Source: an uncultured Christensenella sp. (GTDB taxonomy: Bacteria; Bacillota; Clostridia; Christensenellales; UBA3700). Taken from it: a DNA stretch of 64,000 nucleotides. The stretch covers positions 58,714 to 122,713 of the forward strand of contig CAJUEA010000001.1 in assembly GCA_910584975.1 (NCBI GenBank). Reading direction: 5' to 3'. Below the pieces are notes generated by a model. That model saw only the letters and a list, made by a program, of their open reading frames with translations, ran no database searches and was not told the origin of the DNA. The position numbers were made by a program, and so were the translations under genes. Numbering within the stretch: position 1 is the first letter of the stretch; each line of letters opens with the position of its first letter. Below, in pieces: positions 5,638-6,711 of this stretch.

Positions 5638-5666
5638 TTGACAAATTATAATATTTTGAGTATAAT
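5638..5666 (+). promoter_or_regulatory. Sigma-A promoter of cassette B (TTGACA-17 nt-TATAAT)
   Basis: Consensus -35 at 5638-5643 and consensus -10 at 5661-5666. Confidence 0.8.
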
Positions 5667-5696
5667 AATATTGAAGATGAGCTGACATCTATAAAA

Positions 5697-5812
5697 CCTA
5701 GTGATAGCACCACCATTGCAGTGGCAGCACGGCTGTATAGGCAGCCCAAACAAACCTATATCTAGCACCACTATTATAGTGGCAGCACGGCTGTATAGGC
5801 AGCCCAAACAAT
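5697..5812 (+). ncRNA. Tandem 2 x 58-nt RNA repeat (putative antitoxin RNA of cassette B)
   Basis: Units 5697-5754 and 5755-5812. The 48-nt core AGCACCAC..GTGGCAGCACGGCTGTATAGGCAGCCCAAACAA is identical between units except in one hairpin loop. Each unit has CCAC/GTGG and GGCTG/CAGCC hairpins. It lies downstream of the promoter and upstream of a terminator. Confidence 0.6.
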
Positions 5813-5823
5813 CAGAGATATTT

Positions 5824-5851
5824 AGGTGCATCAAAATTGGTGCACCTTTTA
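5824..5851 (+). terminator. Intrinsic terminator between the RNA repeats and protein B
   Basis: 7-bp stem AGGTGCA/TGCACCT with a 10-nt loop, then TTTTAT. The T-run is modest. Confidence 0.55.
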
Positions 5852-5868
5852 TCATTAGTGAGGTAACA

Positions 5869-6711
5869 ATGGAAAAAGATAAAATATTGGAACTACTTTA
5901 TATTAGTTGGGAAAGTTATCAAACAAAACTTATACCTAATTCATATTTATATCTATATGAAAAAAATGGTATTTTGAAATCAAAATTTGTAGCCGCTCGA
6001 GATTATAATTTTTTACATCTAAGTGGTATAAAAACTAATTTATCAGCAGAAATGTTTGCGAGAAAGTTAAGGAAAAAATCCTTAAAGCCTAAAGAATTTT
6101 ATTTGGAAAATAAAAGAAATATCAAAAGCAAATTATATAAGCTGCCATCTTTGCATGAAGTTATGGAACAACCATTAAAGATAGGTAAAAAATCTAATAC
6201 ACTTAAAAATGTTGACTACATAGTTGGAAGAAATCAAATGATTTTAGGCTTTTCTTGTGCTAACAATGGGAAAGGTTTTGATAATCCATCAACATTAATG
6301 AGCGGTATTTGGGAGACTATAGCCGCAGGAAAATTCTATGATATTTTGGTAGTTCTGAAGACGCCCAAGCAAGGTCAAAAGTTATTTGATAAAGTAACTT
6401 ATATTTCAGATAAATTTGATTATAGCAAATTGCCAATTAGTATAATCAATAAATGTGATCCAAAAGTTCTAGAACATTTGAAAAATGGTAAAATTTCAGT
6501 AGAAAATATAGCACGAGAGAAAAATGATTATGAACTTTTAAACAAATTACCAACTAAAGAGGAACTTCAAGAAACAAATGCATATAAAAAAGCTGAACTA
6601 AAATATGGCAAAAAGATTGCCGATAGTCTTGTAAAAAATATTATTAATGGAAGTAAGCACAAGAAAAAACAAAATTCAAATCAAAATGAAAAAAAAGGTC
6701 CGACTAAATAA
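5869..6711 (+). CDS. Putative toxin/effector of cassette B, N-terminal domain family unassigned, C-terminal tail shared with toxin A
   Basis: RBS GAGGT upstream of ATG 5869, 280 aa. No ToxN blocks are present. The motif NFLHLSGI is reminiscent of PBECR/barnase-EndoU-type nuclease domains, but this is unverified. The tail ETNAYKKAELKYGKKIADSLVKNII matches the toxin A tail. Confidence 0.55.
   Translation: MEKDKILELLYISWESYQTKLIPNSYLYLYEKNGILKSKFVAARDYNFLHLSGIKTNLSAEMFARKLRKKSLKPKEFYLENKRNIKSKLYKLPSLHEVMEQPLKIGKKSNTLKNVDYIVGRNQMILGFSCANNGKGFDNPSTLMSGIWETIAAGKFYDILVVLKTPKQGQKLFDKVTYISDKFDYSKLPISIINKCDPKVLEHLKNGKISVENIAREKNDYELLNKLPTKEELQETNAYKKAELKYGKKIADSLVKNIINGSKHKKKQNSNQNEKKGPTK

Follow-up and report, generated by a model that had tools for sequence, protein, structure and literature searches.

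Organization of the cassette

We analysed a 64,000-nt stretch of DNA from an uncultured Christensenella sp. (assembly GCA_910584975.1, contig CAJUEA010000001.1, positions 58,714 to 122,713 of the forward strand; hereafter the window), which contains at positions 5638-6711 a cassette formed by a consensus promoter, two tandem copies of a 58-nt RNA unit, an intrinsic terminator and a gene coding for a 280-aa protein (Table 1). The cassette looks like a member of an undescribed family of RNA-antitoxin (type III-like) toxin-antitoxin (TA) modules, since nearly every relative examined shows the same layout, with the RNA ahead of the terminator. An initial annotation of this DNA had already proposed a type III TA locus with a new toxin and a repeat-RNA antitoxin. 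All the elements that it described were recovered no more than 3 nt from where it had placed them, including the 12/12 consensus promoter, the terminator and the RBS (ribosome-binding site) with its ATG, and the constituents of a type III layout (promoter, tandem repeats, terminator and a gene with its own RBS) were all present. The exact promoter sequence TTGACA-17-TATAAT occurred twice in the window, against 0.05 occurrences expected from shuffled sequences, and transcription would start near G5673. The terminator stem (5824-5847) is followed by a T run that reads TTTTATCATT, and the ATG at 5869 opens the 280-aa open reading frame (ORF), which ends at 6711.

Two other readings of the upstream region were considered and discarded. 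A 336-aa ORF starting at GTG 5701 (the ENA call, P0001) was regarded as an artefact of a frame that stays open across the RNA, since it lacks an RBS, the repeat period of 58 nt is not divisible by three and the alignment with homologues begins at M1. The possibility of a protein antitoxin concealed in the stretch from the promoter to the ATG was rejected as well: the region contains no RBS-bearing ORF, and it shows RNA-like covariation in relatives.

The tandem RNA units

The units were recovered by a repeat search as two head-to-tail direct repeats with 88% identity, and the 58-nt array was not reported by the program TRF at its thresholds. The initial annotation had delimited them as 5697-5754 and 5755-5812; the repeat itself stood, although its register, which is arbitrary, was 3 nt off the one used here. 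Seven differences separate the two copies, three in the loop of hairpin 1 and four in the 5' spacer, in agreement with the earlier observation that the 48-nt cores differ only in that loop.

The minimum free energy folds of the unit were two plain hairpins, CCAC...GUGG and GGCUG(U)...(G)CAGCC, the same pair that had been proposed. In unit 1, hairpin 1 is formed by CCAC (5710-5713) and GUGG (5721-5724) around the loop CAUUGCA, and hairpin 2 by GGCUGU (5731-5736) and GCAGCC (5741-5746). Hairpin 1 of unit 2 is longer (CCACUA, 5768-5773, with UAGUGG, 5777-5782), and its hairpin 2 lies at 5789-5794/5799-5804. The full 184-nt transcript had a more stable fold than its shuffles (z = -3.8); when units were folded singly, unit 2 gave z = -2.5 and unit 1 was no better than shuffles (z = -0.4). 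By eye, a candidate pseudoknot could be drawn between the 5' CCUAUA and the hairpin 2 loop UAUAGG, with 6 bp in unit 2 but 4 bp in unit 1 and only 3 bp in the related locus L102; this pairing has no covariation support and is not conserved in L102-L104. The RNA region of the window had no match in Rfam 15, either at the gathering threshold or at E<=10. The 7-nt loop of hairpin 1 was considered as a mimic of a tRNA anticodon loop, and this idea was dropped because the U33/R37 pattern is not retained.

The protein contains a stand-alone PBECR4 domain

The 280-aa protein had initially been left in an unassigned family, an assignment that had to be corrected: it matches the Pfam family PBECR4 (PF18813) over residues 15-141 with an E-value of 7.7e-15 and 56.2 bits, against a cut-off of 27. 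The accompanying suggestion that the protein is not ToxN-like and recalls PBECR RNases, made from its NFLHLSGI motif, was borne out. No match to the ToxN_toxin Pfam family was obtained even at E<=10, and there were no matches to HEPN/Abi_2 or deaminase Pfam families, to PADLOC 2.0 or to NCBIfam; the single PHROGs match had an E-value of 0.14 and lay within the C-terminal tail. A word-indexed protein search with the single sequence as query returned only the protein itself, and an exhaustive HMMER search yielded 66 relatives, mostly of about 200 aa. Of the 113 profile matches, the only one not annotated with PF18813 was P0001, the cluster of the window ORF itself, for which no Pfam entry had been precomputed. 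In an alignment of 53 sequences (A1), His50 of the NFLHLSGI motif, Gly53 and Lys88 were invariant, and the Thr of P140-x-T142 was the majority residue, not an invariant one.

Structure prediction with AlphaFold2 (AF2) and alignment A1 gave a predicted local distance difference test score of 87 overall, about 95 over residues 1-210 and about 60 over the helical tail (211-280). His50 sits in a helix (45-52) that is preceded by strands and followed by a helix and five to six strands, a topology compatible with the remodelled PBECR architecture of bioRxiv 10.64898/2026.08.28.747851. The structure prediction proposed in the initial annotation gave a model of high confidence, and a Foldseek search with it found no PDB match (best E 0.09, TM <= 0.12), no ToxN, CptN or TenpN and no solved BECR RNase. 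A sequence-profile search of PDB gave nothing significant either. Two phage proteins in BFVD share the fold of the model, with E-values of 5e-11 and 3e-9. In view of the missing structural match, the prediction of an RNase function is based on the family assignment by Pfam and Iyer and on the conservation of the His and Lys.

The protein consists of one Pfam domain and a low-complexity tail, which is not the composition of a polyvalent protein (2-15 effector domains per polypeptide, usually with a zincin peptidase). Such a tail is absent from most PBECR4 relatives, and comparable ones were found in P0002, P0003 and P0036. A motif in it, ET[NK]AYK..KYG..AD.LV, is common to aa 226-259 of the PBECR4 protein (6544-6645) and aa 192-225 (5299-5400) of a ToxN protein encoded upstream in the window (BLASTP E 6e-4). 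Similarly, a PBECR4 protein (3001-3927) and an unrelated 181-aa protein (5471-6016) of locus L002 have nearly the same tail (..EQCG..D.EIA...QVEQVGQVQQVRKGKTK.KE.KDNSGKR). Tails shared by unrelated toxins might bind a common partner, act as a signal for localisation or provide a recombination flank through which cassettes are exchanged.

The cassette and the first 12 kb of the window had no nucleotide match in phage and plasmid collections, tblastn of the protein against plasmids and phages (50,697 phage genomes covered) gave no match, a P0069-based locus search in viral contigs found nothing, and none of the 600 pattern matches obtained with alignment A3 in metagenomes was confirmed.

Table 1. 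Coordinates of the features of the PBECR4 cassette in the window
Feature	Position	Strand	Basis
Sigma-70-type promoter, TTGACA (5638-5643)-17 nt-TATAAT (5661-5666)	5638-5666	+	12/12 score
Leader hairpin AGAUG-AGCUGA-CAUCU, followed by A-rich junction UAUAAAACC (5690-5698)	5675-5690	+	Fold
RNA unit 1, 58 nt, register arbitrary; A-rich tail CAAACAAACC	5694-5751	+	
RNA unit 2, 58 nt; tail CAAACAAUCAG	5752-5809	+	
Intrinsic terminator, 10-bp stem AGGUGCAUCA/UGGUGCACCU (5824-5847), then UUUUAUCAUU	5824-5857	+	
RBS GAGG, 5 nt upstream of the ATG	5860-5863	+	Direct sequence reading
PBECR4 domain, aa 1-210, predicted metal-independent endoribonuclease	5869-6498	+	Pfam, alignment A1, AF2
C-terminal K/Q/E-rich helical tail, aa 211-280, and stop codon	6499-6711	+	Outside the PBECR4 domain

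Structured RNAs precede the gene in closer relatives

A promoter, a structured RNA, a terminator and a PBECR4 gene were present in 11 out of 11 distinct closer-relative loci examined, most of them with a single unit or a tandem pair of units of about 50-58 nt. The closest relatives, P0002 (52% identity, locus L001) and the metagenome contigs L102-L104, carry units of the window type, a terminator and a homologous ORF. These contigs were found by searching metagenomes with a DNA pattern of the RNA motif, which retrieved nothing from viral contigs. In all four loci the stem of hairpin 1 is CCGC/GCGG instead of the CCAC/GUGG of the window, a compensated change, and L102 and L104 have two units where the otherwise near-identical L103 has one.

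More distant relatives (23-36% identity; L002, L003/L004, L005, L009/L014, L015, L096, L097, L098 and L105) show upstream of the gene a strong promoter, then an RNA measuring about 150-250 nt, followed by a terminator and an RBS. In seven of these loci the units, single or in a tandem pair, measure about 50-55 nt, and each is made up of a variable hairpin, an invariant GUUG-loop-CAAC hairpin and the sequence AGAAAAAYC, and an A-rich-YC motif flanks every unit. Unit number varies here too, L003 and L004 encoding the same protein downstream of two units and one unit, respectively. Tandem copies within one array carry compensated stems, AAAAGG/CCUUUU and CAAGAG/CUCUUG in L005, GGCAA/UUGCC and GCCGA/UCGGC in L096. 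The leader hairpin and junction of the window (GATGAGCTGACATCTATAAAATC; GAUGAGCUGACAUCUAUAAAAYC) are identical in L097; variants with compensated stems occur in L003 (GGUG-AGCUGA-CACC) and L098 (GGUG-AGAAUGA-CACC), and a related form in L015 (GUG-GACUGA-CAC).

Units of the majority type served to build a covariance model (R1), all matches of which lay on the coding strand and upstream of PBECR4 genes or of remnants of such genes. In alignment A6 of the units, five of the five hairpin 1 pairs showed double (compensatory) changes, a count that leans towards structure because the alignment was fitted to R1, and hairpin 2 (GUUG/CAAC) was invariant. The RNAs of 17 related loci had no match in Rfam. 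The sequences upstream of these genes are structured RNAs, not coding.

One of these loci is part of a finished sequence from a cultured strain, plasmid pCY360 of Butyrivibrio proteoclasticus B316 (L105; NC_014389.1, 345653-346770), where a 480-nt unannotated gap upstream of the PBECR4 gene (WP_013283001.1) holds a promoter, a ~200-nt RNA and a terminator. Incomplete cassettes were also seen. In L002 (4560-4900 and 6120-6460), a promoter, a leader hairpin, two RNA units and a terminator are followed by only a 22-codon stub (MISYSPKECLMLIIEE...); in L003 (186-440) and L004 (404-656), an RNA unit and then an N-terminal PBECR4 fragment lie directly upstream of the intact cassette. A further fragment of L002 (4420-4629, 69 aa, ..AEHFKHLSEL..) resembles the PBECR N-terminus and ends in the leader of the next cassette, whose promoter is embedded in its 3' part. 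Such decayed and duplicated cassettes suggest turnover by recombination. L002 also has a drum RNA (RF02958, 54.6 bits) at 4251-4360, about 320 nt downstream of its PBECR4 gene, which has no counterpart in the window at Rfam thresholds.

A main PBECR4 subfamily is linked to a ~200-nt RNA

A genome scan with a tighter alignment (A2) yielded 80 loci in Lachnospiraceae, Oscillospiraceae, Blautia, Dorea, Ruminococcus, Collinsella, Selenomonas and others, 74 of which had at least 324 nt of upstream sequence and were used for the following counts. A terminator-like hairpin no more than 130 nt from the start was found in 66 of the 74, compared with 23 of 370 control windows; the sequence GGCTGACRGCC was common to 72 upstream regions, and 54 had a promoter scoring at least 9/12. 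A conserved multi-helix RNA of about 200 nt, with the ends UAAAA-GCU ... AGC-AUAAAAC and a duplicated hairpin inside, precedes the gene. For this RNA, RNAalifold predicted 42 pairs, 17 of them compensatory (alignment A7), with 97.9% of cells paired against 33-47% (and 3-8 compensatory pairs) in slid-partner controls; none of 500 shuffles reached the observed values. The genes of this subfamily are found between rsmG and parB and beside resolvases, DUF262-like proteins and ATPases, a spread of contexts typical of small mobile TA or defence modules.

The type of RNA tracks the protein clade, as would be expected for cognate RNA-protein recognition. The expectation that homologues would be preceded by tandem repeats and a terminator held for the closer relatives, most of them with one or two units; in the main subfamily, the terminator is preceded by a single structured RNA of about 200 nt in place of simple tandem repeats. 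The idea of a new toxin family paired with RNA withstood those refuting conditions of the initial annotation that could be examined here: no characterised non-toxin family was matched, and relatives at 23-52% identity as well as a second, large subfamily have the RNA and the terminator.

Genomic neighbourhood

Upstream of the cassette, the window contains a gene for a VirB4/TraG-type conjugation ATPase (771-3452), about 26% identical to the ATPases of integrative and conjugative elements of Spiroplasma and Mycoplasma. It is followed by parA (3513-4283), a small ribbon-helix-helix (RHH) gene (4284-4478) and a ToxN cassette, located 1.1 kb upstream of the PBECR4 cassette, with a promoter at about 4527, a terminator at 4673-4699 and a 281-aa ToxN gene at 4723-5568 (PF13958, E 2.7e-31). 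This ToxN has a long C-terminal extension, and the two cassettes are nearly equal in size and layout; the RNA of the ToxN cassette, of about 140 nt, contains two diverged direct repeats, GTGATGCCCGACTAAATA and GTGATGCCCCACCAATTA, spaced by 57 nt. The order ParA, small gene and RNA-PBECR4 is also found in L002 and L098, and a neighbourhood of parA, RHH gene and ToxN cassette is an expected place for addiction modules. The element is probably integrated, given the housekeeping genes further along the window (cysE-cysS and a phosphoglycerate-mutase-like gene). The window (8460-9824) and L098 (3173-3954) each have a UPF0236 (transposase-like) gene downstream of their PBECR4 cassette, which argues for shared ancestry of the two elements.

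Repeats of 13 nt (TGTAAAGACAAAA-type) follow the stop codons of three consecutive units, at 3453-3481 (2.2 copies), 5565-5600 (an inverted pair) and 6710-6816 (8.2 copies). The first array lies directly upstream of parA, and the promoters of the L002 cassettes contain related AAAGACAA motifs; a plausible role for these repeats is that of operators or centromere-like sites at which the ParA/RHH pair would act. At 6840-6898, 2.7 copies of an 11-nt repeat (AAAAACTACGG) stand directly upstream of another strong promoter (6870-6898; TTGACT-17-TATAAT, TG-extended), which drives four small ORFs (6955-8254) that had no Pfam matches. Three 61-nt direct repeats with internal half-sites (AAAGTGGTCGTATTT and AAATTTGGTCGTATTTT) at 22427-22608 are iteron-like and may be a replication origin or a regulator-binding array. 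The only other perfect TTGACA-17-TATAAT promoter of the window belongs to the stretch 31251-31540, with a leader of about 240 nt and a strong terminator upstream of cysE-like and cysS genes (31672-34067); this leader is probably a Cys T-box, uncalled by Rfam.

A candidate RNA-antitoxin cassette and its alternatives

The interpretation that we favour, with a probability of roughly 0.6, is that of a type III-like TA cassette carried by a conjugative element, in which a stand-alone PBECR4 endoribonuclease would be the toxin and the upstream repeat RNA the antitoxin. By analogy with known systems, we infer a toxic activity for the protein and a neutralising one for the RNA. The consensus promoter would drive a transcript of about 180 nt containing the leader hairpin and the two 58-nt units. 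Most transcripts would end at the terminator, leaving the RNA in excess, and occasional read-through would supply the toxin mRNA. As in ToxIN, and as the conserved junction motif suggests, the RNase may process the precursor by cutting at the AAAAYC-like, A-rich junctions found on either side of every unit, and each unit may then stay bound and obstruct the active site around His50 and Lys88. Once the cassette is no longer transcribed, because the element is lost or because phage or stress induces a shut-off, the RNA would decay and the freed RNase would cleave cellular or invader RNA and arrest growth. The outcome would be stabilisation of the conjugative element by post-segregational killing, abortive infection, or both. 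This scheme was modelled on ToxIN, CptIN and TenpIN (PMC8860590, PMC12283969).

Several observations weigh against such a TA cassette. The units, of 58 nt and in two copies, are longer than the classical ToxI, CptI and TenpI units, and no pseudoknot is established in them. Neither a solved RNase nor any other PDB structure recovered by Foldseek resembles the model of the protein. Model R1 does not detect the window-type units, even with filters off, so that homology between the RNA variants rests on their shared architecture and shared leader; the window units are a distinct sequence variant with the same architecture. The largest subfamily has a single RNA of about 200 nt instead of tandem repeats, which fits a cis-acting leader equally, and the succession of promoter, leader, terminator and gene is also that of riboswitch or T-box-type attenuators, a probable example of which precedes cysE-cysS in the window. 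The literature searched, which covered only a minority of the subscription journals, contained neither a link between PBECR4 and an RNA nor any biochemistry of PBECR4.

The main rival reading is an unlikely alternative in which the RNA is a cis-regulatory attenuator that tunes read-through into the PBECR4 gene in response to a protein or a ligand, possibly by autoregulation through binding or cleavage of its own leader by PBECR4, and does not neutralise anything in trans. The layout is generic, as the T-box-like cysE-cysS leader illustrates, and the highly conserved multi-helix RNA of the main subfamily is more riboswitch-like than a repeat array. Unit 2 (5765-5775) is also complementary to the 3' arm of the terminator (5833-5843) over 11 nt with 82% complementarity, but this is not kept in the closest relatives L102-L104, whose terminators differ. 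More generally, the spacers between RNA and terminator vary and the terminators of different clades are unrelated in sequence, and no Rfam riboswitch or leader family was matched. Two further features speak for autonomous modules rather than one integrated sensor fold: the number of units changes between one and two upstream of identical proteins, and the two copies of one array diverge with compensated stems. The arrays of L002 that keep promoter and terminator ahead of a 22-codon stub would be unexpected if the RNA acted purely in cis.

It is rather improbable that PBECR4 acts as an offensive or establishment RNase with an anti-defence role, for example against host CRISPR or other RNAs, with the RNA as its cofactor, guide or chaperone. 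The RNA would then set the specificity of the RNase or keep it inert in the donor, and the tail could serve to direct its transfer or its localisation. The polyvalent proteins in which PBECR domains were defined are delivered together with DNA, by phages and by conjugative elements (PMC5512222), and several homologues adjoin leading-region-type genes (SSB, ArdC-N, SprT-like, topoisomerase, resolvase); the tail motif common to the window protein and ToxN, and the almost identical tails of the PBECR4 and 181-aa proteins of L002, would also suit such a role. However, most members are tail-less proteins of about 205 aa, many of them in chromosomal, non-conjugative contexts such as rsmG/parB, a secretion role of the tail is pure conjecture, and no homologue was found among the 50,697 phage genomes. 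The RNA, with its invariant GUUG/CAAC hairpin 2, does not show guide-like variability. As for a coincidental adjacency, in which an unrelated gene would by chance follow an independent small-RNA gene or the remnant of a repeat, the presence of only two copies and the poor fold of unit 1 when taken alone could be cited for it. It is effectively refuted by the linkage of RNA and gene, which recurs in more than 85 loci (Lachnospiraceae, Oscillospiraceae, Collinsella, Selenomonas and metagenomes) with the RNA each time directly ahead of the gene and on its strand, and by the covariation of the RNA.

Going beyond the TA cassette that we favour, it could be speculated, as a long shot, that these loci are more than a fourth type III TA family of the RNase type and represent an exchangeable cargo of conjugative elements, RNases gated by RNA. 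Cassettes could be swapped between the end of the RHH gene and the promoter on the 5' side and the shared tail-coding 3' end, the shared tails could target ToxN, PBECR4 and other proteins to a common partner or to the transfer machinery, and the RNA could serve as a sensor or gate instead of a simple plug, a possible starting point for an RNA-programmed activity like that proposed for AbiF and Cas13.

Comparison with known systems

Type III TA systems are few, comprising three related RNase families together with AvcID and AbiF. They act in phage defence and plasmid addiction and have provided sequence-specific RNase tools, and one of them has been proposed as the evolutionary root of Cas13. 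If the favoured reading is correct, PBECR4 would add a toxin fold unrelated to ToxN, and an orphan family, predicted in 2017 and uncharacterised, would gain a function open to testing as well as an inhibitor of natural origin. The additions would include no fewer than three new classes of structured RNA, one of them of about 200 nt, with strong covariation and no Rfam entry, which is common in human-gut Lachnospiraceae, Oscillospiraceae and Collinsella. The unannotated gaps of 200-500 nt upstream of genes for PBECR4 domain-containing proteins in isolate genomes would be explained, and the ToxIN and PBECR4 cassettes side by side on one element would constitute a natural pair for studying RNA-antitoxin specificity.

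The definition of PBECR domains was computational: they are predicted His-dependent RNases of the BECR type, present in polyvalent and solo proteins of phages and elements with a type IV secretion system (T4SS), and carry as their signature a catalytic His in a helix and a C-terminal Ser/Thr; in multidomain proteins they were proposed to be injected anti-host or anti-CRISPR RNases (passages of Iyer, Burroughs, Anantharaman and Aravind, 2017; PMC5512222). The window protein belongs to the same HMM family, has the signature His in a helix and is encoded on a conjugative, T4SS-bearing element. It differs in that its domain is stand-alone and linked to an RNA, whereas the PBECR passages of PMC5512222 describe no associated RNA, terminator or TA-like organization. 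The BECR-fold toxins colicin D, colicin E5, CdiA-CT and RelE are likewise predicted metal-independent RNase toxins that need to be masked in the producer, and their structures were not recovered by Foldseek. They are neutralised by proteins (immunity proteins or type II antitoxins), in contrast to the window cassette, which has no partner ORF between promoter and gene and whose conserved partner is RNA.

Three classical type III families are recognised, ToxIN/AbiQ, CptIN and TenpIN (Blower et al. 2012, summarised in PMC12283969 and PMC8860590). The window cassette resembles them in its promoter, tandem non-coding repeats, Rho-independent terminator and endoribonuclease gene with its own RBS, in its A-rich stretches, non-identical repeats (as in tenpI) and small copy number (about 2-5), and in its location on a mobile element. 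It is distinguished from them by a toxin with neither sequence nor structural similarity to ToxN, CptN or TenpN, by 58-nt units that exceed the classical toxI and cptI repeats in length (PMC12283969) and form two simple hairpins, by a conserved leader hairpin upstream of the array and, in the main subfamily, by a single multi-helix RNA of about 200 nt. As the toxin is not a homologue of theirs, the PBECR4 cassette is not a ToxIN, CptIN or TenpIN system. Systems without a ToxN-like toxin, AbiF-ncRNA and AvcID, are nevertheless classed as type III (PMC12373285, PMC10511110, PMC12283969), and they set a precedent for unrelated toxin folds, a HEPN RNase and a deaminase, being held in check by an upstream structured non-coding RNA that lacks the classical repeat-pseudoknot organization. 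The PBECR4 cassette is not one of these systems either; the toxin domains of AbiF and AvcID are other than PBECR4 and their RNAs are unrelated to those described here. Its RNAs are absent from Rfam 15 and its protein from PADLOC 2.0. The cassette would thus combine the logic of type III systems with a toxin fold and RNA classes that are both new.

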